Shown here piece by piece: positions 5,385 to 45,524 of a DNA stretch of 64,000 nucleotides. The notes under the pieces are model-generated. The model was not told where the DNA came from. It worked only from the letters and a program-made list of their open reading frames with translations, and did not search any database. The stretch is from the IMG/VR virus record IMGVR_UViG_3300045988_137804, positions 1 to 64,000 of that record. One strand, written 5' to 3'. The stretch is from a virus. The first letter of the stretch is position 1. Every line of letters starts with the position of its first letter. A program made the translations under genes and the position numbers.

Positions 5385-6965
5385 ATGGTAAATGAGATTA
5401 TTAATGGACTTGGTGTTTTAGTTCCTGTAGTGATTGTAGGAGCAGGTGGAATTGGAATTGTTGGTTCTGGATATGTAAAAGCATCGCCAGATAAAGCCTA
5501 TATCATTTCTGGTTTAAGAAAAGATCCAAAAGTTCTTATTGGAAAAGCTGGGCTTAAGATTCCATTCTTTGAAAAGAAAGACGAGCTAAATCTTCAGTTA
5601 ATTCCAATTGATGTAAAAACATCAAGTGCAGTTCCAACAGCAGATTACATCAACATTAACGTTGATGCAGCAGTAAACGTAAAGGTAAGTAGCGACACAG
5701 AAAGACTTAAACTTGCAGCAGAGAACTTTCTTAATAAACCAACTGACTACATTGGACAGGTTGCAAGAGAAGTTCTTGAGGGTAATATGCGTGAGATTGT
5801 TGGCAAAATGAACTTGGAAGAAATGGTTTCCGATCGTCAGAAGTTTGCAGAACTCGTAAAAGAAAATGCCGAACCAGATCTTGCTGCAATGGGACTCGAC
5901 ATTGTGAGCTTCAATGTACAGAATTTTGTTGATGAAAATGGAGTAATTGAAAATCTTGGTGTTGACAACATTGTTAAAATTCAGAAAAATGCAGCTATTT
6001 CAAGAGCTGATAGCGAAAAAGAAATTGCCAAGGCTCGTGCTATGGCTAAAAAAGAAGCGAATGATGCAGAGGTAACTTCTGAATTGGAAATTGCAAATGC
6101 TCAGGCTGAAGCACAGAAGAAGAAAGCAATTGTACAGGCTAACGCAGATAGAGAGTCAAGAGAAGCTCAAATTGCAGCAGACACACTTATTGCACAGAAA
6201 GAAAATGAACTTGAAATTAAAAAAGCAGAACTTCAGAAAGATGCTGATACGAAAAAGGCTTCAGCAGATGCAGCTTATAGTATTCAGGAAGAAAATGAAA
6301 GAAAATCTGTGGAGATTGCTACGGCAGATGCTAATCTTGCTAAACAGGAAAAAGCTGTGGAGATTAAAGAGAAAGAGATTGCACTCACAGAAAAAACTCT
6401 TGAAGCTACTGTAAAGAAACAGGCTGAAGCAGAAAAATATGCAAAACAGCAGGAAGCAGATGCAAGACTGTATGAAACACAGAGAAAATCAGAAGCAAAT
6501 CTTTTTGAGAGACAGAAAAATGCTGAAGCAGAGAAGTTTGAACGTGAGAAAGAAGCTGAAGCTATGAAAGCAACAGCAGAAGCTAACAAATATGCTATGG
6601 AACAGGAAGCAGAAGGTATTCGTAGTAAAGGACAGGCTGAAGCCGATGCAATCAAAGCAAAAGCTCTTGCAGAAGCAGAAGGTATTCAGAAGAAAGCAGA
6701 AGCAATGAAACAGATGGGTGAAGCAGCAGTTCTTGATATGTATTTCAAAGCTATGCCAGAAATCGCCAAGAATATCGCAGAACCTCTTGCCAAAGTTGAC
6801 AAAATTACAATGTATGGAGATGGAAACTCTTCAAAATTGATGAAAGATATCATGAACACTCTTAATCAGGTTACAGATGGTATGAAAGAGTCAACTGGAA
6901 TCGACTTAAATTCTATTCTTGCAGGTTTTGCAGGTGCTAAAATTGCTGAATCTACAGACAAATAA
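5385..6965 (+). CDS. flotillin-like SPFH (band-7) domain protein
   Basis: N-terminal TM segment, an SPFH core (YIISGLRKDPKVLIGKAGLKIPFFEKKDELNLQLIPIDV...MGLDIVSFNVQNF), then a long A/E/K-rich coiled coil as in FloT/YqiK. Strong RBS AGAGGAGAAAG. Confidence 0.85.
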   Translation: MVNEIINGLGVLVPVVIVGAGGIGIVGSGYVKASPDKAYIISGLRKDPKVLIGKAGLKIPFFEKKDELNLQLIPIDVKTSSAVPTADYININVDAAVNVKVSSDTERLKLAAENFLNKPTDYIGQVAREVLEGNMREIVGKMNLEEMVSDRQKFAELVKENAEPDLAAMGLDIVSFNVQNFVDENGVIENLGVDNIVKIQKNAAISRADSEKEIAKARAMAKKEANDAEVTSELEIANAQAEAQKKKAIVQANADRESREAQIAADTLIAQKENELEIKKAELQKDADTKKASADAAYSIQEENERKSVEIATADANLAKQEKAVEIKEKEIALTEKTLEATVKKQAEAEKYAKQQEADARLYETQRKSEANLFERQKNAEAEKFEREKEAEAMKATAEANKYAMEQEAEGIRSKGQAEADAIKAKALAEAEGIQKKAEAMKQMGEAAVLDMYFKAMPEIAKNIAEPLAKVDKITMYGDGNSSKLMKDIMNTLNQVTDGMKESTGIDLNSILAGFAGAKIAESTDK

Positions 6966-8169: not shown

Positions 8170-8592
8170 ATGAGATTTTCTGAAGCAATCGAACATCTTC
8201 TTAACGGAGAACGCATAAAGGAAGCGTGTTGGGAAAATGGTTATTACATCAAGCTGGAAAACGACAAAATTGTGGATTGTGATGGATCAGCAGAAGTGTT
8301 CGATAGTAAAGACATTATATCTAACGATTGGGAGCTATATCAGCCTAAATTAGATGTAGGTGCGGTTATTCAATACAATGACGGTACAATCGGAATTGTG
8401 CTTAGTTTATCTGAACTAGATAAGGAATACATCATTTTAGATGAGAATTGGTGCGTAGAAACAGTGAATGAAAGCCAGGTTTCATTAATCAATATTGACT
8501 ATGGAAAAGTTAGTTTGCATGAAGATTCTGCGAGTAAAAATCTCAAAAGTATAGTTTTATCATTACAGATGATTTCAGAGTTAGTAAATTAA
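8170..8592 (+). CDS. DUF2829-like protein (family that, to my recollection, includes the Thoeris anti-defence protein Tad2)
   Basis: N-terminus MRFSEAIEHLLNGERIKEACWENGYYIKL fits the remembered DUF2829 start (M.F.eAl.al..G..v.R..W). The C-terminal half is unassigned. Confidence 0.4.
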   Translation: MRFSEAIEHLLNGERIKEACWENGYYIKLENDKIVDCDGSAEVFDSKDIISNDWELYQPKLDVGAVIQYNDGTIGIVLSLSELDKEYIILDENWCVETVNESQVSLINIDYGKVSLHEDSASKNLKSIVLSLQMISELVN

Positions 8593-9311: not shown

Positions 9312-9507
9312 AGAATATATAAATAGGAAATTATTTCACTGTTTGCTGAAAACTTAGAACTACAATCATTCAGACTTTTGCAAGTATAGCCTGAATCAAA
9401 ATAATAAAGAAGCTTGCAACATAATAAAACATAAAAAGCAAGTATAGCAAATTATTACAGGAATGCTTGATGCACAGTGTTGAGCGTTTATAAATTACAA
9501 GATGACT

Positions 9508-9744: not shown

Positions 9745-9833
9745 GGATCATTACATCAACTGGTAAGATGAGCTGCCTCATAAGCAGAAAGCCCTAATAA
9801 GGTATAAACTGGGTTCGACTCCCAGATGATCCA
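9745..9833 (+). tRNA. tRNA-like gene, anticodon CAU, unusually long (20-nt) variable region
   Basis: Acceptor GGATCAT/ATGATCC, D arm CATC-AACTGGTAA-GATG, anticodon loop CTCATAA, T arm CTGGG-TTCGACT-CCCAG. 89 nt, no encoded CCA. Confidence 0.55.
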
Positions 9834-9968
9834 CTGTATCTGAATATTCACAGAATGTGTTATTCGTTTCCTTTCTTTCTATGAACATTCTAGTTCAGAT
9901 ACAATGTTTTTCATAACTTCCTTTTGTTTGGTTGGCAACTTACCATATAGACAAAAAAGTTGCAATAA

Positions 9969-10039
9969 TGGGCTGTGGTGTAATGGTAGCACATAATACT
10001 TTGACTATTATAGATCCAGTTCAAATCTGGACAGCCTAG
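9969..10039 (+). tRNA. tRNA-Gln (UUG)
   Basis: Canonical cloverleaf: TGGGCTG/CAGCCTA acceptor with U1-A72 as in bacterial tRNA-Gln, anticodon arm TAATA-CTTTGAC-TATTA, T arm TCCAG-TTCAAAT-CTGGA. Confidence 0.85.
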
Positions 10040-10124
10040 CTTGTGAGATTTTGGAACGTCTCACAAATATTACTCCTTTCATGGGTTATTTATAGTGCAA
10101 AAGATGTGCAGAAATGCACATCGA

Positions 10125-10210
10125 GCTGGCATGGCGGAATTGGTAGACGCAATGGACTTAAAATCCATCGGTAAAAACACACCATACGAGTTCGAGTCTC
10201 GTTGCCAGTA
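10125..10210 (+). tRNA. tRNA-Leu (UAA)
   Basis: Type II tRNA: D arm GCGGAATTGGTAGACGC, anticodon arm ATGGA-CTTAAAA-TCCAT, long variable arm, T arm ACGAG-TTCGAGT-CTCGT. An 8-bp GAAA-tetraloop hairpin (10103-10122) lies immediately upstream. Confidence 0.8.
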
Positions 10211-10367
10211 TTAGCCATATGAGACACTTATTCCCTGAGCAAGAATGATGAAGTCGGTACAAAAGTGCTCAATTTCTGTATTTTACATTCGTGTGTTATG
10301 CAAGCAGCACGAATGACATATGGCATTAACCCCCAACATAGGGTATTTACATTTTACAAAAATGGTT

Positions 10368-10437
10368 TGGCTGTTAGTTCAGTGGGAAGAACATCTATTG
10401 CAAGAGAGGGTCACAGGTTCGAGTCCTGTACAGTCAA
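10368..10437 (+). tRNA. tRNA-like gene with a non-canonical anticodon arm (possible GCA/Cys)
   Basis: Good acceptor (TGGCTGT/ACAGTCA), D arm (GTTC-AGTGGGAA-GAAC) and T arm (ACAGG-TTCGAGT-CCTGT). The anticodon region folds only as a 3-bp stem TCT/AGA with an 8-nt loop ATTGCAAG. Confidence 0.4.
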
Positions 10438-10505
10438 CTTGACGCAGAAAACATTTGATTTTTGCATTCATGTTTTGCACGCCTCATTTCTTCAATGTGC
10501 AAAGT

Positions 10506-12133: not shown

Positions 12134-13162
12134 ATGGCAGAAAAGAAAAAAGGTATTGATTTACCACAGACAAAAGGAACATTTCAGGTAAGAGGTAAGG
12201 TTAGTGGTACACAGAAAGATAATTTCTATGTCGAAAAGCTTACAAAAACAAACAAGCCTTGGAGATCAACAAGTTTTGGAATTGAATTCAATCCAGGTTC
12301 TACAATGTATGTTGGTTTAAATGGAATGGAAAGAGATGTTGTCAAGTTTTCAAAAAAAGATAACGAAACAGGTAAATATGTTTCAAAAGATGTTCCTTGG
12401 AAAGACCGTTTTACATTCAATGAGGAAGGTTATGGGCTGATGGGTGTAAAAGTTGGTGTTGAAAAAGTAAAAGACGAAAAAGGCAACGATGTAAACAATA
12501 AGAAAACTCTTGTTGAATTTGATGCTGCAAAAGAGATTTCCGACCATCTCGTTGATGATAAGACAGTATTTGTAAAAGGAAGAATTGAGTATGGAAGTTA
12601 CAATGACAGTCATACAACAAAATTTGTTCCTAGTCAGGTATCACTTGCAAAAGATATTGACTTTGAAGCAGAAGATTTTAATTCACTTGCAGACTTCACA
12701 CAGACAATTGTATTTATGTCAGTCACACCAAACGATGATAAAACAAAAGCGACTGTTGAAGCAAAGATTGTTAATTACGATTCCATTGAAGATGCAGAAT
12801 TTGTAATTACAGATATGGGTCTTGCTCGTGTATTCGCAAAACAGCTTAAGCCATACACAAGTATCAAAGTATGGGGAAATATTTCTGTAGAAAAAGATAC
12901 AACAGAAGTTGAGACAACAGATTGTTGGGGACAGAAAAATAATATGGAGCGTGTAAACACACCTACAGTTCGTGAACTTATTATCACTGGTGCTGATCCG
13001 GAGACAATCGACACAGAAACATACACAGAAGCAGAGATTGACAGAGCAATCGAAACAATCAAGGCATCCAAAGAAGCTGCTAAAGACTTTGGTGGTTCTG
13101 AAAATGGTACATGGGGTTCAGTTCACGCAGGTTCAGAAGATGATGATAATGCAGGTTGGTAA
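12134..13162 (+). CDS. putative ssDNA-binding protein (acidic C-terminal tail)
   Basis: Very strong RBS (AAGGAGG). First gene of the replication block. C-terminus GSEDDDNAGW resembles SSB-type acidic tails. No domain verified. Confidence 0.35.
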   Translation: MAEKKKGIDLPQTKGTFQVRGKVSGTQKDNFYVEKLTKTNKPWRSTSFGIEFNPGSTMYVGLNGMERDVVKFSKKDNETGKYVSKDVPWKDRFTFNEEGYGLMGVKVGVEKVKDEKGNDVNNKKTLVEFDAAKEISDHLVDDKTVFVKGRIEYGSYNDSHTTKFVPSQVSLAKDIDFEAEDFNSLADFTQTIVFMSVTPNDDKTKATVEAKIVNYDSIEDAEFVITDMGLARVFAKQLKPYTSIKVWGNISVEKDTTEVETTDCWGQKNNMERVNTPTVRELIITGADPETIDTETYTEAEIDRAIETIKASKEAAKDFGGSENGTWGSVHAGSEDDDNAGW

Positions 13163-32385: not shown

Positions 32386-35300
32386 ATGGTAAGAGTTATT
32401 AAAAGAGATTGCTCTGAAGTTGATTTTGATAAGAATAAAATTTCAACGGCAATCTTAAAGGCTATGAAAAATGGTAGCGGAATTGTTAAACCCAAAATTG
32501 CGGAATCTATTGCAGATGAGATTGAAAAGGAATGTAAGGATCGAGAAGAGATTGATATTTCTGAAATTGAAGCAATGGTATTTGACAAGCTGATTACCAA
32601 AAAACAGAGACTTACTGCAAGAGCATATGAAGGTTATAGAAGTACAAGAGAATTCCAGAGAGAGAATGAGAATACTGTTGACGAGGAAATTCTTGGAATT
32701 GTAGAAGCAAACAACGAAGAATGGAAAGATGAAAATGCGAATAAAAATCCAGCATTAAACCCTACAATTCGTGATTATATTGCTGGATCTGTAAGTAAAG
32801 ACGCAACAAAAAGATTTTTATTATCTCCAGAAATTATTCAGAGTCATTTAGAAGGAATTATTCATTTCCATGATTCAGATTACTTTATTCAACATATGCA
32901 TAACTGCGGATTAGTAAATCTTGAAGATATGCTTCAGAATGGTACTGTTATTAGTGAAACAATGATTGAAAAGCCACATAGTTTTTCTACAGCATGTACC
33001 GTGACTACTCAGATCATTGCTCAAGTTGCATCTAGTCAGTATGGTGGACAGAGTATCTCACTTGCACATCTGGCACCGTTTGTGGATGTTTCCAGAGAGA
33101 AGATCCGTAAGGAAGTGATCAGCGAGCAGGAACTGGTCGGAATGGAATATCCGGAAGATGTGCTCAATGAGATCGTAGAGAGAAGACTGAAAAAAGAGAT
33201 TACAAAAGGTGTTCAAACAATTCAGTACCAGTTAATCACACTTATGACAACAAATGGGCAAGCACCGTTCATCACAATTTTTATGTATCTGAATGAAGCA
33301 AAGAATGAGAGAGAAAAGAAAGACCTAGCGATGTTAATTGAAGAAATGTTACTTCAGAGAAAACTTGGTGTGAAAAATGAAGATGGTGTTTATATTGCAC
33401 CAGCATTTCCAAAACTCATTTATGTTCTTGAGGATGACAATTGTAACGAATCAACAGAATATTGGTATTTAACAGAACTTGCTGCCGAATGCACGTCAAA
33501 AAGATTAGTTCCAGATTACATCTCTGAAAAAGTAATGAAAGAACTTAAAGGTGATGTGTATACATGCATGGGATGTGTTGATGGAAAAGAACTTGTTACA
33601 TATACATATAACAATAATCTTTACGTTGAATCATTTGAAAGAATGTGGAATAGACTTTCTGATAGATTTGAAATAAAACATCAGTATAATGACAACAACC
33701 CAAATCTATATATGGATTTGAGCGATGTAGAAATCTATGACACAGACAAAGGATTTGTTAATACAGAGAGAATAATCAGAAATATATCAACCTCTTGGCT
33801 TGATGTTAATTTTTCCAACGGAAGAAGATTACTTTGTACAGAAGATCACCCACTTACATTAAGAGATGGAAGAACAATCCATGCATCTGAATTAAAATTA
33901 AAGGATAGAATTCTCATTAATTCACATCAGTATAATGAAGAAAATATTGTATTCAATGAAGACAAGGCGTGGTTGTTAGGTTTTATGCTTTGTGATGGAT
34001 GTTATCAAGGCTCTTTATTTTCTTCAATTGCAGCAGAAAATGAAGATGAAATTGCAGATAAGTTTTCAGAAACAATGAAGAAATATTTTGATCTCGATAT
34101 TGAAAAAAAATTACAGCAAAGAGGTAAGAAAGGAACATATTACGATTTGATTGCACATAGTCAGAATGAAAAAATATCTGTGTATTGTAATTATTTCGCT
34201 AAAAAATTCGAAGGTCTGAATAAGATTGATAGACATGTTCCTAATGAAGTATTTTCATGGAATTATTCGTCAAAACTTGCTTTCCTGGCAGGAATGATTG
34301 ATGCAGATGGGTACATTAATAGTTCTCAGAATAAAGGATTTTCTATAGTTCAAATTGGTTCTACAAACAAAGAACTTGCATTACAACAAATGGCACTTGC
34401 ACAGTCTTTAGGTATGCCAGCAAAGCTGTACCATAACCATTACAGTAAACGTAACCCAGAATTGATTAGATACAGAGTTGAGTTTTATCCAACAGATGAA
34501 CTAATTAATTATATTGTATGTAAAAAGAAATATGATAATTATATTGATTCAAATGTATCTAGTTATAATCATGAATCTGAAGTTACTGAAATCAACAAAA
34601 TTAATAAAAAAATGTTTTCTTACGATGTAACAACAACAAGTGAGCATTTTGAAATTAGCGGAATCTATAGTCATAATTGTAGGTCTTTTTTAACTGTTGA
34701 TAGATTTTCTGATAAAGTTGGAAACATTTCTAACGCTAAAAACTTTAATGGAAAACATAAATATTACGGAAGATTTAATCAGGGTGTTGTTACAATTAAT
34801 CTTCCAGATATTGCATTTTCATCTGATGGCGACATGGATAAGTTTTGGGGAATTTTCGAAGAAAGAACAGAATTATGCCATAAGGCTTTAAAGGCTAGAC
34901 ATAACCGTTTGCTTAAAACTTCTTCTGATATTGCACCAATCCTGTGGCAGAACGGAGCATATGCAAGACTTAAAAAACATGAACCAATTGACAAACTTTT
35001 ATTTGATGGATATTCAACGATTTCTCTTGGATATGCAGGACTTTATGAGTGTGTGAAATATATGACAGGAAAATCCCATACAGATGGTGATGTAGGAGAA
35101 AAGTTTGGATTGGAAGTAATGCAAGCATTAAATGATAAATGTAATCAGTGGAAAGAAGCTGAAAACATTGATTATAGTTTGTATGGCAGCCCAATCGAAA
35201 GCACTACGTATAAATTTGCAAAGTGCTTAAAAAATAGATTCGGTGATGATATTTTTATTAAACTTGATGGATTTGATAGAAATTATATTACAAATAGTTA

Positions 35301-35730
35301 TCACGTTCCTGTGTTTGAAAGAATTACAGCATTTGACAAATTTAAAATTGAATCAAAATTCCAAAACCTTAGTCCAGGAGGCGCAATTTCGTATTGTGAA
35401 ATCCCATCAATTAACGTAAATATTCCAGCATTATTGGAAGTAATTAAATTTATTTATGACAATATTATGTACGCAGAAATCAATACAAAAGATTGTTATT
35501 GCGAAGTGTGTGGATACGATGGAGACATTCCACTTATTGACGATGATAACGGTAAACTTGTATGGGAATGCCCTAATTGTGGCAACACAGATAATACAAA
35601 AATGGACATCGCATTTAGAGTTTGTGGTTATGTTGGTACTGCAAAAAATGGTGGAAACCAAGGAAGATATGGAGATATCCACGATAGAGTTTACCACATC
35701 GATGACTTTGAATACGAGGAAAATGAATAA
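32386..35730 (+). CDS. nrdD: anaerobic ribonucleoside-triphosphate reductase (class III), interrupted by an intein
   Basis: ATP-cone start VIKRDCSEVDFDKNKI, conserved MGC|RSFL site split by the intein, C-terminal zinc site CxxC...CPNC and glycyl-radical motif RVCGYVG. Confidence 0.9.
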   Translation: MVRVIKRDCSEVDFDKNKISTAILKAMKNGSGIVKPKIAESIADEIEKECKDREEIDISEIEAMVFDKLITKKQRLTARAYEGYRSTREFQRENENTVDEEILGIVEANNEEWKDENANKNPALNPTIRDYIAGSVSKDATKRFLLSPEIIQSHLEGIIHFHDSDYFIQHMHNCGLVNLEDMLQNGTVISETMIEKPHSFSTACTVTTQIIAQVASSQYGGQSISLAHLAPFVDVSREKIRKEVISEQELVGMEYPEDVLNEIVERRLKKEITKGVQTIQYQLITLMTTNGQAPFITIFMYLNEAKNEREKKDLAMLIEEMLLQRKLGVKNEDGVYIAPAFPKLIYVLEDDNCNESTEYWYLTELAAECTSKRLVPDYISEKVMKELKGDVYTCMGCVDGKELVTYTYNNNLYVESFERMWNRLSDRFEIKHQYNDNNPNLYMDLSDVEIYDTDKGFVNTERIIRNISTSWLDVNFSNGRRLLCTEDHPLTLRDGRTIHASELKLKDRILINSHQYNEENIVFNEDKAWLLGFMLCDGCYQGSLFSSIAAENEDEIADKFSETMKKYFDLDIEKKLQQRGKKGTYYDLIAHSQNEKISVYCNYFAKKFEGLNKIDRHVPNEVFSWNYSSKLAFLAGMIDADGYINSSQNKGFSIVQIGSTNKELALQQMALAQSLGMPAKLYHNHYSKRNPELIRYRVEFYPTDELINYIVCKKKYDNYIDSNVSSYNHESEVTEINKINKKMFSYDVTTTSEHFEISGIYSHNCRSFLTVDRFSDKVGNISNAKNFNGKHKYYGRFNQGVVTINLPDIAFSSDGDMDKFWGIFEERTELCHKALKARHNRLLKTSSDIAPILWQNGAYARLKKHEPIDKLLFDGYSTISLGYAGLYECVKYMTGKSHTDGDVGEKFGLEVMQALNDKCNQWKEAENIDYSLYGSPIESTTYKFAKCLKNRFGDDIFIKLDGFDRNYITNSYHVPVFERITAFDKFKIESKFQNLSPGGAISYCEIPSINVNIPALLEVIKFIYDNIMYAEINTKDCYCEVCGYDGDIPLIDDDNGKLVWECPNCGNTDNTKMDIAFRVCGYVGTAKNGGNQGRYGDIHDRVYHIDDFEYEENE
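33574..34677 (+). mobile_element. 368-aa intein with a LAGLIDADG homing endonuclease inside nrdD
   Basis: Starts at Cys (CVDGKELVT) right after YTCMG. Block B TEDHP. Two LAGLIDADG motifs (LLGFMLCDGC, LAGMIDADGYI). Ends ...IYSHN followed by the +1 Cys of CRSFL. Confidence 0.85.
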
Positions 35731-38871: not shown

Positions 38872-38899
38872 TTGACAGGAATGCATAGTGTGGTAAAAT
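38872..38899 (+). promoter_or_regulatory. near-consensus sigma-A promoter (TTGACA, 16 nt, TGnTAAAAT)
   Basis: TTGACA at 38872-77, extended -10 TGGTAAAAT at 38891-99. The 10-bp inverted repeat AGGAATGCAT / ATGCATTCCT (38877-86 / 38911-20) straddles it. Confidence 0.65.
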
Positions 38900-38905
38900 G
38901 ATACT

Positions 38906-39240
38906 AACAAATGCATTCCTCTATGTCCCTATGCAATCCAAATTTGCATTTTTTCATCAAAATTGTGTAAATTATTTTTGCACTTTTGTCGAGCGTCAAA
39001 TAAACGAAATAGTTTACAAAATAGACATAGAAGGTAGTGTTTTTGGGAAAATCTAAGAAAATGGTTTTAGTACCCAATTTTTGCTCTATGTCGAGTTCGA
39101 AAAATGGCTTAAAATAAGGCTTTTTTGAGGGTCAAAATCCTAATGAAATACCAATTTCATTCGAACTCAAAATCCACATTAAAAAGTAAAAATAAAGGGT
39201 ACTAGACTTAGCAAATTGCTGGTTTAGTACCCTTTTATAA
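38906..39240 (+). ncRNA. putative ~330-nt structured leader or non-coding RNA (promoter to terminator)
   Basis: No credible ORF. Bounded by the promoter at 38872 and the terminator at 39194-39240. Several strong helices and repeated GGTTT(T)AGTACCC segments. Confidence 0.4.
39194..39240 (+). terminator. intrinsic terminator (long hairpin plus T-tract)
   Basis: AAAGGGTACTA (39194-204) pairs perfectly with TAGTACCCTTT (39225-35). The helix extends through most of the intervening 20 nt. Followed by TTTTAT. Confidence 0.6.
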
Positions 39241-39299
39241 AACGCAAAAATTATTTGCCCCAAAAGTGCAAAATTAGATTACACAATGACATAGAGAAT

Positions 39300-39442
39300 T
39301 TCCCAAAAACGATTTTTGGGAAGAAGATGAAAATGCCGATAAAGCCCGTGGTTGACACGTTTTCTCTTTCCCAAAAATTTTCCCAAAAATGAAGAAAAAG
39401 TTCCCAAAAACGATTTTTGGGGAAAATAGCCATTTTTGGGAA
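39300..39442. promoter_or_regulatory. array of TTCCCAAAAA sites including two 23-bp palindromes
   Basis: TTCCCAAAAA-CGA-TTTTTGGGAA at 39300-22 and 39401-23 (one mismatch). Half-sites at 39368, 39380 and 39433, plus 39040. They flank a TTGACA at 39352-57 upstream of the tns operon. Confidence 0.6.
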
Positions 39443-39518
39443 GCTTTATTCTTACACATGAATGCATTTGTTATTCATCAAAAACTGTATAAACATACAG
39501 ATGAAAGGAGCAAATGCT

Positions 39519-39863
39519 ATGCAGAAAAAGAATTACAAAGGTCGCTGCGAGAAATTAACAGTGCCAAAATCTAAGGATGTCTGCCATATCTATAATGACA
39601 TCCAAAAGTCTTATCTATTACAACTTCAGGACGATCCAAACATCAAAGAGATAAAATGTAATGTCCTTATGCTTGGATTGGAACTTGGAGAATTCACATC
39701 TGATTTTCAGTGTGTTACAGCAGACAACAATCTAATAGTGCGTGAATGTATCTCACGAGATGCTATCGCCAAACCAATGACAGCAAAACGATTAGATGCT
39801 TCAAGAGAGTATTGGTTTCGTCATGGCATAACAGATTGGGGGATTGTAACCGATGAAAAATAA
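39519..39863 (+). CDS. tnsA: short TnsA-like protein (endonuclease N-terminal-domain-like, 114 aa)
   Basis: AAAGGAG RBS. LQDDPNIKEI...GEFTSDFQCV...LIVRECIS...REYWFRHGITDWGIVTDE resembles the TnsA core (..YTPDF.V....EVK....E.yW...g..w.ivte). The expected E and K positions do not look conserved. Confidence 0.45.
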   Translation: MQKKNYKGRCEKLTVPKSKDVCHIYNDIQKSYLLQLQDDPNIKEIKCNVLMLGLELGEFTSDFQCVTADNNLIVRECISRDAIAKPMTAKRLDASREYWFRHGITDWGIVTDEK

Positions 39864-41661
39864 GAGTCTATTTTATAATCCAAAAACCAAAGAAATATTT
39901 CGTGTGTTAGACAGTAAAGGTTCAAAAGTTCTTATCATTAATTGCACAAAGAAACAGATGCCTTATTGGACAGAATTCGATTCAATTTCTTCCTGTCGTT
40001 TAATCACAGAAGATGAATTACAGGACATGACTGGCACACATTTTCAAGAACTAACTGTACCATCAAAAGAATACAGATATGTTCAAGAAAGGTTTTCACT
40101 GATTTCAAATATCATTCCTATCATCGGAAATAAAAGCAAGCGTACTCAGATGATACGAATCATATCTGAAACAAATAATTGCAGTAAACAAACAATCAAA
40201 AACATCTTGTGCCAGTATCTCATCTATCAAAATATTTCTGCATTAGCACCGCAAAAGAGCAATGAAAAAGAACTAACAACAGATGAGAAAAACATGCGTT
40301 GGGCATTAAATAAGTTCTTCTATACAAAGAATAAGAATTCATTATCAACCGCTTACGTCATGATGCTTAAAGAAAAATATACAGATGAATACAACAACTT
40401 ATTACCACACCCAACCATTCATCAGTTCCGTTATTTCTATCGCAAAACAAAAAAGATGGAAACGTATTATATCTCAAGAGATGGCATAAAAGATTACCAA
40501 AGAAATCACAGACCATTGCTAGGAGAAGGAATTAGAACAGTTGCAAATAGCATTGGAACAGCTATGTTGGATTATACAATCTGTGATATTTATCTCGTAA
40601 ACGATAAACAAGAATTAATTGGTCGTCCATTAATGACAGCTTGCATTGATGTCTACAGCGGATTGTGTTGTGGTTACTCATTAACATGGGAAGGTGGAAT
40701 GTACAGTTTGCGTTCTTTGATGTTAAATGTGGTCACTAATAAGAAAGAACATTGTAGAAAGTTTGGAATAAATATCGAAGAATCCGACTGGAATTGTCAT
40801 CAATTACCTGCAACATTAATCACAGATAAAGGTTCAGAATATGCGTCAGAAAACTTTGAACAACTTACAGATTTAGGAGTGTCTATTATAAATCTACCAG
40901 CCTATAGACCAGAGTTAAAAGGATCAGTTGAAAAGTTTTTTGATATGATTCAATCACTTTATAAGCCACAGTTACTAGGAAAAGGTGTCATAGAATCTGA
41001 TTTCCAGGAACGTGGCTCACATGATTATAGAAGAGATGCTTGTCTAACATTAGAACAATTTGAAAAAATAATTCTTCGTTGCATCATCTATTATAATACA
41101 CAGAGAATTATCAAAAATTCACCACTGATTGAACAAAATATTCCGCCACATTCTTGTGACATATGGAACTATTATTTGACCTATAATGATGACTTTTTGA
41201 TAAGAATATCGCCACAGAATCTACTTTTATGTTTGCTACCAAGAACGAAAGGAGTGTTTAAAAGAAATGGTTTAAACGTCAATAGTCTCCGCTATAAGCA
41301 TAAAACATACACCGAAATGTATCTTGTAGGAGGAGATGTAACAGTAGCCTACAATCCAGAAGATGTTTCTTACATTTGGCTCATTGAAGAAAATGGAACG
41401 TATGTAAAATTTGAATTAATCAATTCTCAGTTCTATGGAAAGGATTTATCATTTGTAGAAAAATATATGGAGTCATCTAAGAAGCTAATTGCAGAAAATA
41501 CCGATGATAATTTACGAGCAAAAGTTACGCTTTCAAAAGATATAGATTTTGTAATTTCTGAAAGTGTACGTTCTAATGTAAGCACAAAAAATATCCGCAA
41601 GAATCGTCAGAAAGAACAGGAACTTACTCATAGAGATTTCGTAAAGGAGTATGAATTATGA
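39853..41661 (+). CDS. tnsB: TnsB/MuA-family DDE transposase
   Basis: DDE candidates in MLDYTICDIYLV, LITDKGSEYAS and RPELKGSVEKFF. 602 aa. Overlaps tnsA-like by 11 nt. Confidence 0.8.
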   Translation: MKNKSLFYNPKTKEIFRVLDSKGSKVLIINCTKKQMPYWTEFDSISSCRLITEDELQDMTGTHFQELTVPSKEYRYVQERFSLISNIIPIIGNKSKRTQMIRIISETNNCSKQTIKNILCQYLIYQNISALAPQKSNEKELTTDEKNMRWALNKFFYTKNKNSLSTAYVMMLKEKYTDEYNNLLPHPTIHQFRYFYRKTKKMETYYISRDGIKDYQRNHRPLLGEGIRTVANSIGTAMLDYTICDIYLVNDKQELIGRPLMTACIDVYSGLCCGYSLTWEGGMYSLRSLMLNVVTNKKEHCRKFGINIEESDWNCHQLPATLITDKGSEYASENFEQLTDLGVSIINLPAYRPELKGSVEKFFDMIQSLYKPQLLGKGVIESDFQERGSHDYRRDACLTLEQFEKIILRCIIYYNTQRIIKNSPLIEQNIPPHSCDIWNYYLTYNDDFLIRISPQNLLLCLLPRTKGVFKRNGLNVNSLRYKHKTYTEMYLVGGDVTVAYNPEDVSYIWLIEENGTYVKFELINSQFYGKDLSFVEKYMESSKKLIAENTDDNLRAKVTLSKDIDFVISESVRSNVSTKNIRKNRQKEQELTHRDFVKEYEL

Positions 41662-42917
41662 TTAATATGAATAAAGTAATCAAAGAACTTCCTGATATGC
41701 TGTCCGGAAATGAACTTCAGAAAGCAATGTCTATTATTCCAAAATACGACAAACAGATTCAGGAAGATGGAAGTATGACCGAAAGACTTTTGAAATTATC
41801 TGACCTTTATAGCATTTATATTCCATCACAAATGTCTACTGAAATTTATAGCAAACTATATCTTGGAATCATTCGTTCTATGCAGAAAAAAGGAAACAAG
41901 TTAACTGTACAACAATTCAATTCAACTTATAGAACGATGCAGAATATTAAGAATAAAACTGGCAATCAGCAATATGATGGAATCATAGGTGGATCAGATT
42001 CATTTACAATTATTGGTGCAAGTGGGATAGGAAAATCATCAGCTATTTCTCGTGCATTGAATCTGATTGAAGCAAATCATGTAATAGAAATTGAACAGCC
42101 TTACACTAAAATACTTCCATGCTTAACAGTGCAATGTCCATTCGATTCTTCTGTAAAAGGATTATTACTTGAAATTCTTCGCAAAGTTGATGAGCAGTTA
42201 GGAACAGATTATGCACAAACAAAAAGGTTCACGACTGATATGCTTATAGGTGCTGTTAGTCAGGTGTGTTTAAATCATATTGGCTTGCTTGTTGTAGACG
42301 AAATACAGAACGTAGTTAATTCAAAGAACGGCAAGAACTTAATCGGATCATTGACGCAGCTAATCAACAATTCAGGCATTAGCATCTGCATGGTTGGAAC
42401 ACCAGATAGTGAAATATTCTTTGAACAGGCTATGCAATTAGCTCGTAGAAGTGTCGGATTAAAATACACAGCTTTGCCATACGATGAACATTTTTGCGAA
42501 GTATGTGAATGCTTATTTTCTTACCAATATGTAAAAAATATCACATATATAAATAGCACGACTATAGAATGGTTGTATCAACACAGTGCAGGAGTTATCT
42601 CTATTGTTGTATCATTAATTCATGATGCACAAGAGATTGCAATCTTAAATGGGAGAGAAGTATTAGATATTAAATCGTTAGACGAAGCATACAACAATAG
42701 ACTTTCTATGTTGCACGATTATATTAGACCTACTATGAGAAAGAAATCTATCGGCAATAATAAAATAAAGAAACAAAATATCATTACAACTTTGTCGATA
42801 AAAAATAGCGCAGATATTCAAACAGATTTAATACAAAGTCTTGCGAAAGAATGTAAGAAAGATGGAACAGATATTGTAGAAATACTGAGTCAACATATTA
42901 CAATTGAGGTGATTTAA
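41658..42917 (+). CDS. tnsC: TnsC/TniB-type AAA+ transposition ATPase
   Basis: Walker A IIGASGIGKSSAI, Walker B LLVVDEIQN. ATGA overlap with tnsB. Confidence 0.8.
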   Translation: MINMNKVIKELPDMLSGNELQKAMSIIPKYDKQIQEDGSMTERLLKLSDLYSIYIPSQMSTEIYSKLYLGIIRSMQKKGNKLTVQQFNSTYRTMQNIKNKTGNQQYDGIIGGSDSFTIIGASGIGKSSAISRALNLIEANHVIEIEQPYTKILPCLTVQCPFDSSVKGLLLEILRKVDEQLGTDYAQTKRFTTDMLIGAVSQVCLNHIGLLVVDEIQNVVNSKNGKNLIGSLTQLINNSGISICMVGTPDSEIFFEQAMQLARRSVGLKYTALPYDEHFCEVCECLFSYQYVKNITYINSTTIEWLYQHSAGVISIVVSLIHDAQEIAILNGREVLDIKSLDEAYNNRLSMLHDYIRPTMRKKSIGNNKIKKQNIITTLSIKNSADIQTDLIQSLAKECKKDGTDIVEILSQHITIEVI

Positions 42918-44318
42918 ATGATTGGATTTATGCCTAAATTATATCCAGATGAATTAGTGTATAGTTGGATTGCTAGGTATCATGTAAGAACTGGACATTA
43001 TAGTTATCAGCAAACAGCAAAACATCTACTAGATAAGAAAGCAAATATTGTCTCGAAAAAGTTTTTAAACGAATACTCAAATGAATTTTTTAACATCATC
43101 AAAAAGAATATTCCAATAAAAGAGTTAGTAATAAATCATAGTATGCTGTCAGCTTATATTAAATTTTTGCCAAAAGATAAGCGCAATAATCTAATAGAAT
43201 CCTATGAAAACAATTTAAGATATAAAGAGTCATCAATTGGATTTAAGACAAGAAGTAATGGTATTAGTATGCGATATTGTCCTATATGTGTAAAGGAAGA
43301 TCGAGAAAAATATGGAGAAACTTACTGGCACAGAGAACATCAATTTGTTGGAATTAATGTATGCACAAAGCATAAATGTTATCTTATAGATTCCAAAATG
43401 TCTGTAAAAAGTATTGATAAGTCTGAGTTTTATACCGCAGAATATGTCATAGAACAACATGATGATGTTAAGATTTCCAATAATGAGTATGAGATAAAGT
43501 TTGCCAAGTATTTTACAGAAGTCATAAATACAGAGTCAAATAATGACTCAAATATTGTGGAATATCTCAATACTATATTATTGAACTCAAAGTATAGAGC
43601 AAATGGATGTATGCTAAAAGATTTTAATAAATTGTACGATGATTATTCTGAATTATGCGAAAAGATTAATGTAAATATAATTTCTTCACAACCATCGTTA
43701 AGAGAGATATTAAAAAATAAACGCAGAACATTGGATATTTGTATCCTTGGAATGCTATTGAATATTTCGCCTTACGATCTCGTGAATAGAGTATTGCCAA
43801 ATACAAACAAAGAGGATATCAGAGAGCAAGTCATATTTTTAAGAGATGTAAAAAAGATGAGTTATAATCGTATTGCAAAAGAATTAAACGCAAGTAGAAG
43901 AGCAGTTGGTACAATATATCATAGTAAAAAAACTGAAAATGATTTAGATGTTCTTAAACTTCTTAAAGATGAACTGCCAAAATTCTATAATGGAGATTTA
44001 ACTAATGGAAGACCGCAAAAAATAACAGTATACACAGTTGAAAAACAATTTGATATTCCACAAAAAGTATTAATAAATAATAAATCCTATTATAACGAAA
44101 TAATCAAGTATGAAGAGTCTTATCCTGAATATTGGGCGAGAGAATTAGTATGGTCTTATAATAAACTAAAGGAAGATAAAGCATATATAAGTCAAAATAA
44201 AATAACCAAACAAATAAATATTCGTAAGGAGCAACCTGTAAAAGCTATACCATACATCTCTAAATATACAGACAAAGAAACTGCTGAAGCTATTAAATCA
44301 TTATTGCAAAAATCGTAA
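42918..44318 (+). CDS. tniQ: TniQ/TnsD-family target-selection protein with C-terminal HTH
   Basis: N-terminal LYPDELVYSWIARYHVRTGH, zinc module RYCPICVKED...HREHQFVGINVCTKHKCYL, and a later HTH-like MSYNRIAKELNASRRAVGTIY. Starts immediately after the tnsC stop. Confidence 0.8.
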   Translation: MIGFMPKLYPDELVYSWIARYHVRTGHYSYQQTAKHLLDKKANIVSKKFLNEYSNEFFNIIKKNIPIKELVINHSMLSAYIKFLPKDKRNNLIESYENNLRYKESSIGFKTRSNGISMRYCPICVKEDREKYGETYWHREHQFVGINVCTKHKCYLIDSKMSVKSIDKSEFYTAEYVIEQHDDVKISNNEYEIKFAKYFTEVINTESNNDSNIVEYLNTILLNSKYRANGCMLKDFNKLYDDYSELCEKINVNIISSQPSLREILKNKRRTLDICILGMLLNISPYDLVNRVLPNTNKEDIREQVIFLRDVKKMSYNRIAKELNASRRAVGTIYHSKKTENDLDVLKLLKDELPKFYNGDLTNGRPQKITVYTVEKQFDIPQKVLINNKSYYNEIIKYEESYPEYWARELVWSYNKLKEDKAYISQNKITKQINIRKEQPVKAIPYISKYTDKETAEAIKSLLQKS

Positions 44319-44324
44319 AAAAAT

Positions 44325-44360
44325 GGGGAATAGAAGAGTATTAAATCTCAACTATTCCCC
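44325..44360. terminator. hairpin terminator shared by convergent tniQ and the endolysin gene
   Basis: GGGGAATAG (44325-33) / CTATTCCCC (44352-60). The T-tract (ATTTTTTT) is on the minus-strand side, so it fits best as the endolysin terminator. Confidence 0.6.
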
Positions 44361-44378
44361 ATAATTAATTATAGAAAA

Positions 44379-45524
44379 TTATTTTAAAGCACCGCTTGAA
44401 TTAAAGCTATATTCTTTTCCACCTATTTTAATTATTTCATTACAAGCCATTGATCCATCATCTTTAAGATAATATTTTGTGCCTTTATCTGTAACCCAAT
44501 GATTTCTCATCATTGCTCCGACTGGGATACAATCCTTATCTTTATTATACCAATACCATTTATTATTTTTTTTTAACCAACCAGTTACCATTGAACATCC
44601 TGGAAATCCAGAGACTTCTCCACTTGATACAAAATAATAATCATTTGTCCCATCATTATATTCGCCTAAAACTGCTGAACCAGTTTGATGATTTTTACCT
44701 CCACTTGTTCTCAATAGATACCAAAAACCATCAATTTTTCTCCAACCCGTAACCATCGCACCGATTGCATAATATGGCGTATTAGATTCACTTAAATAAT
44801 ACCAGTCGCCATTATCACAAAGCCAACCAGTTTTCATACTGCAATCATCATTAAAATAATACCAATGTCCATTTATTGATTCCCATTTATTATTTATAGC
44901 ATAACCATTTTTGTCAAAGTAGTACCAAACGTTATCTAGACATTTCCACTGTTCCTTTGGGTATGATTCGTCATCATTTCTATACCACCAGCCAATATTG
45001 TCTTTTTTCCAACCAACAGATATTTTATTAGTAATATCTTTCTTGAACTGATTCCAAATAGAAGAGTCACAACCGTTTGCACCCCAACCTGTCCAACCTG
45101 GACAAGACTTAGAGCATACATCCCAATGACGAACAACATGAGCTGCATCGATGTTATATTTCTTCATAAGTGTTTTAGTAAGTTCAACTGTATTTCTATA
45201 TGTTCCATCAGAAATCTTTCCGTCTGTAGAACACATTTCGATGCTAATTGAATTACTATTCGTACATTTTCCAAATAAGTTATTTGAACCGTAATTTCTT
45301 CCAACAGCCCAAGCCGTGTCACTATCGGAAACTACCTGTACTACGTTCTCTGTATCAACGAAATAATGAGCAGATGCACCACGGTTAGTACTTTTAAAGT
45401 AGTTGCCGTTGTTCACAGATTTGTCCCACCAATTTCCTGTGTAGTGAATTACAATATACTTTCTTCCGTTATTACCTTTTGTGTAATTAACTTTAGTAAG
45501 GTTTTGAATAAGTTTGTAAGCCAT
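44379..45524 (-). CDS. endolysin: N-acetylmuramoyl-L-alanine amidase (Amidase_2/PGRP-like) plus cell-wall-binding repeats
   Basis: IVIHYTGN...ASAHYFVD...AWAVG...SISIEMC amidase core. The C-terminal half holds about 6 GW..(x)..WYYF/WYYL repeats. Confidence 0.85.
   Translation of the reverse strand: MAYKLIQNLTKVNYTKGNNGRKYIVIHYTGNWWDKSVNNGNYFKSTNRGASAHYFVDTENVVQVVSDSDTAWAVGRNYGSNNLFGKCTNSNSISIEMCSTDGKISDGTYRNTVELTKTLMKKYNIDAAHVVRHWDVCSKSCPGWTGWGANGCDSSIWNQFKKDITNKISVGWKKDNIGWWYRNDDESYPKEQWKCLDNVWYYFDKNGYAINNKWESINGHWYYFNDDCSMKTGWLCDNGDWYYLSESNTPYYAIGAMVTGWRKIDGFWYLLRTSGGKNHQTGSAVLGEYNDGTNDYYFVSSGEVSGFPGCSMVTGWLKKNNKWYWYNKDKDCIPVGAMMRNHWVTDKGTKYYLKDDGSMACNEIIKIGGKEYSFNSSGALK

Follow-up and report, generated by a model that had tools for sequence, protein, structure and literature searches.

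The transposon Tn7 has TGT...ACA ends with repeated internal sites, produces a 5-bp duplication of its target and inserts in a specific orientation at a fixed short distance past the stop codon of a conserved gene (attTn7, downstream of glmS). The same properties are found in a module of four tns genes in phage DNA that we analysed over a window of 64,000 nucleotides (positions 1 to 64,000 of the IMG/VR virus record IMGVR_UViG_3300045988_137804, to which all coordinates given without a contig name refer). Among solved structures, the TnsB, TniQ/TnsD and TnsA-fold proteins of this module are each nearest to their Tn7 counterpart. However, the module departs from Tn7 in that its two ends are adjacent (368 bp) with the tns genes outside them in the free form, in that its TnsA is cut to 114 amino acids (aa), without the C-terminal domain or equivalents of E63 and K132, and in that a whole self-replicating phage of ~205 kb is mobilised; tandem insertions at one site also indicate that target immunity is weak here. 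We propose that the tns genes are probably the lysogeny module of this gut phage, TniQ-directed replicative transposition leading to a cointegrate that constitutes the prophage. They are not a decayed passenger transposon.

Replicative transposition of Tn7 with a catalytically dead TnsA is said to have been described by May and Craig in 1996. Tn7-like elements unable to cut the 5' strands form cointegrates in which the donor replicon lies between two direct copies of the transposon, and such cointegrates can be resolved by a resolvase or by host recombination (PMC11406308). The phage module resembles both dead-TnsA Tn7 and the TnsA-less CRISPR-associated transposons (CAST) of type V-K, in which the absence of 5'-strand cleavage yields a whole-donor cointegrate with two direct copies (PMC11406308). 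In those systems, however, cointegrates arise as laboratory artefacts or undesired by-products, whereas here the cointegrate is apparently the selected outcome, and the layout of the phage makes every event integrate the replicon. The module is not itself a CAST, since it has neither a Cas gene nor a guide RNA: no Cas domain was found around it, nor Cas12k, a CRISPR array or a guide RNA, and an Rfam search of the window returned only a RAGATH-27 RNA and tRNAs.

The elements Tn5053 and Tn402 (TniA-TniB-TniQ-TniR) share with the module the trio of TnsB-like, TnsC-like and TniQ proteins and, presumably, replicative transposition through a cointegrate, but they resolve this cointegrate with the serine resolvase TniR at a res site. 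No resolvase was found among the open reading frames (ORFs) scanned here (64 kb of ~205 kb), so the module is not of the Tn5053 type and the cointegrate would persist as a prophage; the phage proteins are also nearer to TnsB and TnsD of Tn7 than to TniA (~22-24% identity to tniA matches). Mu-like phages (MuA, MuB) likewise have a DDE transposase with a Mu-transposase C-terminal domain, an AAA+ partner and a 5-bp duplication. In Mu, however, the ends coincide with the termini of the genome, target choice is near-random and replication proceeds by transposition. The phage studied here has a TniQ selector, one specific attachment site, and its own DNA polymerase III alpha subunit, helicases, ligase and nucleotide metabolism. 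In its free genome the two ends lie side by side, and they are internal in a record of 204,597 nt and in several contigs; with such ends, a single attachment site and its own replisome, the phage is not Mu-like. Cointegrates of the IS26 type and Hfr-type replicon fusions also join two replicons through a short element, with direct repeats at both joints, but they depend on an unrelated enzyme family, have no dedicated target selector and play no role in phage lysogeny.

The tns genes and the double-ended cassette

The four genes are read from the plus strand and encode a mini-TnsA that folds like the N-terminal endonuclease domain of TnsA and has no TnsA C-terminal domain (114 aa, 39519-39863), a TnsB-type DDE transposase (602 aa, 39853-41661), a TnsC/TniB AAA+ ATPase (419 aa, 41658-42917; Pfam TniB 5.8e-13, AAA_22 9e-14) and a TniQ/TnsD-like target selector (466 aa, 42918-44318). 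All four are intact and conserved among relatives at 56-96% identity. TnsB carries the Pfam domain Mu-transpos_C, with HTH_TnsB in its homologues, and its best PDB match is Tn7 TnsB (7PIK, E = 1e-37), the D, D and E residues being aligned and present. TniQ is recognised by Pfam TniQ (6e-21), matches Tn7 TnsD at its N-terminus (8GLU, 1.8e-9) and has a C-terminal helix-turn-helix region; its identity to TniQ of relatives at other insertion sites is 29-37%, with the zinc-finger motif conserved. The module therefore possesses the core of a Tn7-like system, that is, a TnsB with an intact triad, an adjacent TnsC/TniB AAA+ regulator and a TniQ/TnsD target selector.

The mini-TnsA was identified only through an alignment-based model and a fold search, as a profile search of PDB sequences missed TnsA. 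It belongs to a family of ~115-aa proteins (103 matches, 46-97% identity). The alignment-based model reached a predicted local distance difference test score (pLDDT) of 95, against 42 for a single-sequence model, and its only strong PDB matches were Tn7 TnsA (1T0F and 1F1Z; query-normalised template modelling score 0.79, E = 2e-6). In a profile alignment with a TnsA reference sequence verified against 1F1Z, D114 of TnsA corresponds to the invariant D62, E63 to Q29, and K132 has no lysine counterpart (34 family members), while the local sequence R75-E76-C77-V/I78 is invariant across the family. By this alignment, the E63, D114 and K132 of a competent TnsA endonuclease are not all present, and the C-terminal domain is absent too. 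With two of the three catalytic residues missing, the nuclease is predicted to be inactive, and this is only a prediction because the alignment is weak (hhalign probability 4.7%).

Both transposon ends are located upstream of the tns genes, within a double-ended cassette of 368 bp (38924-39291, plus strand) with the termini 5'-TGTC...GACA-3', delimited by host junctions, a solo copy and assembly breaks. End A (38924-38988, plus strand), recognised by its core count and inverted repeat, is the target-gene-proximal end when integrated; End B (39236-39291, minus strand) has a reverse complement, TGTCATTGTGTAATCTAATTTTGCACTTTTGG, that aligns with End A, and the two ends are inverted repeats over their first ~31 bp. 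The 13-nt core AWWTTTGCRYTTT occurs four times in the 64 kb (0.37 expected), twice in each end, always facing inwards and nowhere else. These four cores (38940-52 and 38974-86 in End A; 39239-51 and 39263-75 on the minus strand in End B) are candidate TnsB-binding sites. The cassette thus shows the TGT...ACA termini, mapped from the host junctions, and the inward-facing repeat arrays of Tn7-like ends.

The motif GACATAGAR is found four times within 38919-39296, with one more copy in the window at 12224. Two of the four (38919-38927 and 39288-39296) span the cassette termini and the other two (39024-39032 and 39084-39092) form internal pseudo-ends. The phage-side flanks CTCTA and TAGAG consequently lengthen the inverted repeat by 5 bp beyond the cleavage sites. 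Part of the 368-bp cassette seems to be duplicated internally, because the 241-250-bp cassettes of relatives are without the middle part. As long as the genome is free or circular, 368 bp separate the ends, and the tns operon begins 228 bp outside End B; tns genes and cargo, which in a free Tn7-like element lie between the ends, are so placed here only in the integrated, duplicated state. The window and several independent contigs each hold a single copy of the cassette, between the HNH gene and the tns operon.

A sequence-only reading of this DNA had noted that there is no room for a distal transposon end between tniQ and the following endolysin gene. This observation stands: no end is present there or in 44.3-64 kb, where motif counts and a 14-mer search also bear out its report that the upstream-leader motifs are absent, and no 14-mer of the segment 38856-39470 has a further copy on either strand of the 64 kb outside it. 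No end is missing, however, as both ends lie upstream at 38924-39291. That reading had named, as evidence to the contrary, an inverted end carrying multiple sites at a distance of a few kb, together with a target-site duplication; both do exist, on the opposite side of the module. Its idea that the other end lies beyond the window, making the lysis and fibre genes cargo, was right in one respect: in the prophage the whole phage, lysis and fibre genes included, lies between End A and End B. The second end, however, is not beyond the window but at 39291 in the circular or permuted form, 368 bp from the other. Its third suggestion, that the ends do not resemble the leader motifs, agrees in part with the finding that the most conspicuous motif, TTCCCAAAAA, is not an end sequence and lies almost wholly outside the cassette.

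TTCCCAAAAA has seven exact copies in the window (0.49 expected), all in 39040-39442: six of the seven are in 39300-39442 and the seventh, at 39040-39049, is within the cassette. Together with TTTTTGGGAA it forms an array, in both orientations and with a spacing of 12-13 bp, around the conserved block GATAAAGCCCGTGGTTGACAC (39297-39445), outside End B and directly upstream of the tns operon. Since the host junctions put these repeats outside End B, they were rejected as TnsB end sites; a role as operator or enhancer can be guessed at. Relatives that target guaA have an equivalent, larger array (L019, 9330-9665) upstream of their small tnsA-like gene. The 21-nt block GATAAAGCCCGTGGTTGACAC (39337-39357), which contains TTGACA, recurs at 1185-1205 of an unrelated IMG/VR phage (L030, UViG_3300002185_000022), where it is surrounded by a different repeat, AAGTGGCCAATTGGCCAC, upstream of a non-tns gene. 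This phage was rejected as a relative of the module, as it shares the promoter-like block only and is without tns genes; the block may be a conserved phage promoter element with interchangeable operators.

A promoter-like site, P1 (38872-38899, plus strand; TTGACA-16 nt-TAAAAT with TG), is situated on the phage side of End A and reads into the cassette. It matches the consensus at 11/12 positions and is bracketed by the pair GAATGCAT / ATGCATTC; it is conserved in the diverged phage L022 and absent from host-flanked left junctions. An extra copy of GAATGCAT occurs within P1 at 38879-38886, and a perfect 14-nt inverted pair, TAACAAATGCATTC / GAATGCATTTGTTA, links the P1 transcript start (38905-38918) with the tns leader (39460-39473). 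The pair and GAATGCAT may represent a shared operator joining the two promoters.

Inside the cassette, folding revealed a terminator-like hairpin, GGGTACTAGAC...GTTTAGTACCC followed by TTTT (39194-39240, plus strand), and a second small hairpin with a T-run at ~39104-39122. The former, which the shorter cassettes of L022 and L024 have at another position, would shield the tns operon from upstream transcription. The transcript from P1 to the terminator (341 nt) folds at -91.5 kcal/mol (z = -7.2). A structured or guide RNA beyond the terminator-like hairpins was rejected: RNAalifold on 12 cassettes gave an unfavourable covariation term (+3.98), its long-range pairs being the terminal inverted repeats and its compensatory changes falling in only one small hairpin, and an Rfam search found no match in the cassette. 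The strong fold is thus due to inverted repeats and hairpins, not to a conserved RNA.

Host junctions and target site

Left junctions were sought in contigs with close TnsB homologues and right junctions in contigs matching the dUTPase of the window. At the left junction, host SulP and polysaccharide-deacetylase genes are followed by TGTC (38924), the cassette, the array and the tns operon; bacterial DNA abuts 38924 on the tns side in L001, L015 and L017/L045, the isolate [Ruminococcus] faecis JCM 15917 being among the sources of this junction. L001 is a scaffold of 287,853 nt with RecQ, SulP and polysaccharide-deacetylase genes upstream of a small ORF, and with amidase and fibre genes after tniQ; its similarity to the window starts at TGTC, 38924. 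The cassette of L017/L045 is 100% identical to that of the window, and these contigs encode exactly the same mini-TnsA. At the right junction, the dUTPase and HNH genes and the cassette up to GACA (39291) are followed by a host ABC-F gene (L009, L035, L037). As the left and the right junctions both contain it, the segment 38924-39291 is present at both joints of the prophage in the same orientation, and the prophage appears to be bracketed by two direct copies of the cassette.

On the left, the host flank ends in ...GGCACAACACA; on the right, it starts with ACACACGGTGTC..., and both share ACACA. When the empty site is rebuilt from the flanks and a single ACACA, it forms an 18-bp hairpin (-36.2 kcal/mol, z = -7.7) whose loop holds the insertion point; this point lies 36 nt past the stop codon of the deacetylase gene in L001, L015 and L017/L045. 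The two flanks are, by this folding, the halves of one intergenic target-site terminator downstream of the deacetylase gene. Insertion is specific for site and orientation, at 36 nt past the deacetylase gene and, in relatives, 6 nt past guaA (L019) and 16 nt past a macB-type gene (L024).

Duplications of 5 bp accompany the insertions. In L016, a solo cassette inside a bacterial ORF has AAGGT on both sides. In L035, a single contig reads HNH-cassette-ACACA-cassette-ACACA-CGGTGTCTG, which is a fresh insertion at the identical 5 bp, next to an older solo copy. The positions of the assembly breaks are those expected of a repeat that has four different exits: Logan contigs (k = 31) start 30 nt before 39291, a k = 141 contig starts ~140 nt before it, and SPAdes contigs stop 31 and 53 nt past 38924.

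The attachment site also gathers debris. In addition to the tandem cassettes of L035 (11596-11968), L032 (11595-12540) carries a 120-nt cassette remnant and a Gp49/HTH toxin-antitoxin pair between the cassette and the ABC-F gene, and in L034 (11596-11640) a different End-A-like sequence, TGTCTCTTAGCAACCC, lies 6 nt past the cassette. A sequence of ~25 nt, GGAGTTTTTCGTTGATCCGAAAAA, is common to otherwise unrelated flanks (L037, 11640-11670; L027 and L029, ~120 nt past the tniQ stop) and may be the terminal repeat of another mobile element.

Proposed replicative cointegration and competing explanations

After infection, TniQ (TnsD-like) would recognise the 3' end of the host polysaccharide-deacetylase gene, and TnsC and TnsB would join the 3' ends of the cassette to the target ~36 bp past the deacetylase stop, in the terminator loop and in a fixed orientation. 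The TnsA-like protein, keeping its fold, would leave the 5' strands uncut, as it has lost two of the three catalytic residues. Replication across the cassette would then convert the strand-transfer intermediate into a cointegrate, giving a prophage with the order host, 5-bp duplication, cassette, tns operon and late genes, early genes with dUTPase and HNH, cassette, duplication, host. Excision would take place by recombination between the 368-bp direct repeats, which would regenerate the circle and leave a solo cassette behind. Given that the two ends lie side by side and that the genes are external to them, every replicative event from a circular genome gives the observed structure, and for this reason we favour the replicative route.

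Several points weigh against this interpretation. The loss of the nuclease is deduced from the weak hhalign alignment mentioned above, and the invariance of R75, E76 and C77 could possibly reflect an unusual active site of the mini-TnsA. The two junctions of the prophage were obtained on separate sequences; their pairing was joined from different samples and relies on these, on the hairpin reconstruction, on L035 and on size sums (287,853 nt corresponding to ~38 kb of host, 205 kb of phage and 45 kb of host DNA). Chimeric metagenome contigs could in principle result from a 368-bp repeat that a free phage shares with a solo cassette in the chromosome, but chimeric assembly leaves the tandem units, the duplications and the recurrence with different assemblers unexplained. 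Inspection for recombinases covered 64 kb of ~205 kb, with no integrase or resolvase among the ORFs scanned there or in the gene tables of identical loci. The tandem cassettes imply weak target immunity, unlike in Tn7, and the part played by the TTCCCAAAAA array is left unexplained by the model.

An identical prophage structure could also be reached without replicative transposition, by cut-and-paste on a concatemer or dimer, pairing the End A of a cassette with the End B of the following one, or by direct integration of linear virion DNA with 368-bp direct terminal repeats ending in TGT/ACA. The mini-TnsA is strongly conserved (46-97%), with D62, R75 and E76 invariant, so that some activity is conceivable. 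We nevertheless regard this route as unlikely, since two of the three catalytic positions of Tn7 TnsA are substituted family-wide and ends 368 bp apart should beat ends 205 kb apart, which would make most events unproductive; in the version with terminal repeats, moreover, the terminase would need to cut exactly at the transposon tips.

Still less probable is that the tns genes move only the 368-bp cassette and that the phage enters in Campbell fashion, by homologous recombination with a resident solo cassette. Solo cassettes do exist (L016, and the second unit in L035), the phage has recombination genes, among them those for RecJ and an AAA_24/Sak4-like protein, and the end product would be the same. 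As the only route, however, this is difficult to reconcile with L035, in which the phage-attached cassette stands beside the older solo copy with a fresh ACACA between them, rather than being merged with it, and a landing pad in a soon-to-be-killed cell would be of little gain to the phage.

The sequence-only reading had considered that the module lost one end and is immobile or domesticated, and in its fullest form, an ordinary Tn7-like transposon reduced to a passenger with the host-phage joins being assembly chimeras, this is very improbable and largely refuted: although no end lies downstream of tniQ, the junction evidence comes mostly from short-read metagenome assemblies and curated phage collections hold no close relative, both ends are intact upstream, the four genes are intact and conserved in relatives of 56-96% identity, the same phage is joined to bacterial DNA at a specific site with target-site duplications (in one case with a 100% identical cassette and the exact TnsA-like protein), the same junctions recur across assemblers and samples, including contigs of 205-288 kb with the junction near one end, a tandem unit-duplication-unit cannot come from a chimera, and a related module follows guaA in the complete chromosome of Roseburia hominis.

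Relatives, genomic setting and significance

Replicative cointegration directed by TniQ, which we consider the best account of this locus, may not be restricted to one phage. L022 is a phage with 79% TnsB identity and the order dUTPase, P1, 250-bp cassette, array, tns genes, endolysin, and L024 (73% identity) has a 241-bp cassette 16 nt past the macB-type gene. L018, the complete Roseburia hominis chromosome, and L019-L021 (56-60% identity) carry the insertion 6 bp after guaA; their cassette of 194 bp has 37-bp inverted repeats, the ~630-nt spacing and the GACA|TAG(A/T)G joint are as in the window, and the cargo is plasmid-like (Rep3, D5-type primase, ArdC, relaxase). On balance, we incline to see in these 'inside-out' Tn7-like modules a family that serves as a general device for inserting whole circular replicons, such as the ~205-kb phage and plasmid-like elements, at chosen sites in the chromosome; a mini-cassette with an external operon would make the cointegrate the intended product, enforced by a degenerate TnsA, and solo cassettes would be scars of lysogeny.

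In four other phages (L031, 11178-11387; L036; L040; L041), whose dUTPases are mutually identical and at least 94% identical to that of the window, an Xis-like HTH_17 gene follows HNH, the cassette and tns genes being absent there. The HTH_17-carrying phages are integrated beside a LacI-family gene, L040 being from Lachnospiraceae bacterium SGI.054. It looks as if integration modules are swapped between close relatives, the Tns and integrase types being interchangeable. A megablast of 37-47 kb against the phage collection gave no match, and tblastn of TnsB and TniQ against phages gave matches of 22-24% identity only, or none. In IMG/VR, no match was obtained for TnsB or for the end pattern, and P0032, the TnsB of a guaA-site relative (60% identical to that of the window), found at most 27% identity among plasmids.

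The right-hand limit of the module is the convergent junction of tniQ and the endolysin gene. Every coordinate given for it in the sequence-only reading checks out: the tniQ stop (TAA) is at 44316-18, the hairpin at 44325-60 and the endolysin stop at 44379-81, which leaves 60 nt between the two stops. The hairpin (44325-44360, minus strand) has a 9-bp stem with the arms GGGGAATAG (44325-33) and CTATTCCCC (44352-60). Its minus-strand RNA folds stably (-21.7 kcal/mol, z = -5.1) and is followed by AUUUUUUU, a U-run, so that it appears to be the endolysin terminator, as had been proposed from the T-tract on the minus-strand side. Contigs of the P0028 subfamily diverge ~55 nt past the tniQ stop, in agreement with a tight limit at 44318-44360. 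The endolysin (381 aa, 44379-45524, minus strand; Amidase_2 and choline-binding repeats) opens the late region on the minus strand and lies outside the transposition module.

The same reading had correctly remarked that the endolysin lacks an adjacent holin-like gene, no transmembrane holin-like ORF being found beside it, but its suggestion of an insertion or rearrangement at this junction is unsupported. Relatives likewise have none in this place, the small genes beside their endolysin having no transmembrane segments and no homologue in the window. The convergent junction is kept in them with a gap of 60-90 nt, even where the endolysin is of a different type. The absence of an adjacent holin therefore says nothing about rearrangement. 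Close relatives differ in the endolysin beside tniQ, which looks exchanged, with Amidase_2 and choline-binding repeats or with Amidase_3, while the junction stays (window 44379-45524 compared with L001 14550-15467, L022 10505-11542 and L007 16685-17713). L007 encodes a tyrosine recombinase of 331 aa ~2 kb past the endolysin and L003 a 132-aa remnant of it; the window has neither.

The window consists of phage DNA of ~32% G+C. Its methylase is found on an NCBI record of 204,597 nt, from which the size of the free phage genome is taken as ~205 kb. Up to 44318, plus-strand genes code for cytosine methylases, a sigma factor, the polymerase III alpha subunit, RecD-like and DnaB-like helicases, RecJ, NAD ligase, ThyX, FolD, NrdD/NrdG, dUTPase and an HNH endonuclease; minus-strand tail and fibre genes extend from 44379 to the window end. 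The early region encodes a phage sigma-70-type factor (2250-2819), a flotillin/Band-7 protein (5385-6965) and a protein with a Tad2-like (anti-Thoeris) domain (8170-8592). The RAGATH-27 RNA (9335-9418; 80.2 bits, above the gathering score) is located beside four tRNA genes (9745-10438; Met, Gln, Leu), one of which has an irregular anticodon loop and was not assigned by ARAGORN. The anaerobic ribonucleotide reductase NrdD (1114 aa, 32386-35730) contains an intein that includes a LAGLIDADG homing endonuclease, as given in the gene table of L006, an identical locus; the NrdD of relatives is intein-free (~718 aa) or is split and has HNH or NUMOD insertions.

According to a systematic survey, no viral genome contains homologues of Tn7-like transposases (Benler et al. 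2021; PMC8649781), and in a survey of huge phages a prophage of >200 kb was seen only once (PMC7162821). Within the library searched, we found no paper linking TniQ to tailed phages or describing lysogeny via Tn7-type cointegration. If the proposed mechanism is true, it represents a third route to the prophage state, beside integrases and Mu-type transposition, and the first natural case of phage lysogeny that relies on Tn7 machinery. A phage of ~205 kb would then be able to lysogenise, implying that huge phages can be temperate, and there would be a precedent for integrase-free, site-specific integration of 200-kb DNA. Cointegrates, which count as a defect of TnsA-less systems in genome engineering, are here apparently the product under selection, and a 368-bp cassette with four genes may be enough to insert an entire large replicon site-specifically. 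Boundary-finding methods that expect tns genes between distant ends will overlook such elements, while solo 368-bp cassettes could serve to flag past lysogeny in Lachnospiraceae genomes.

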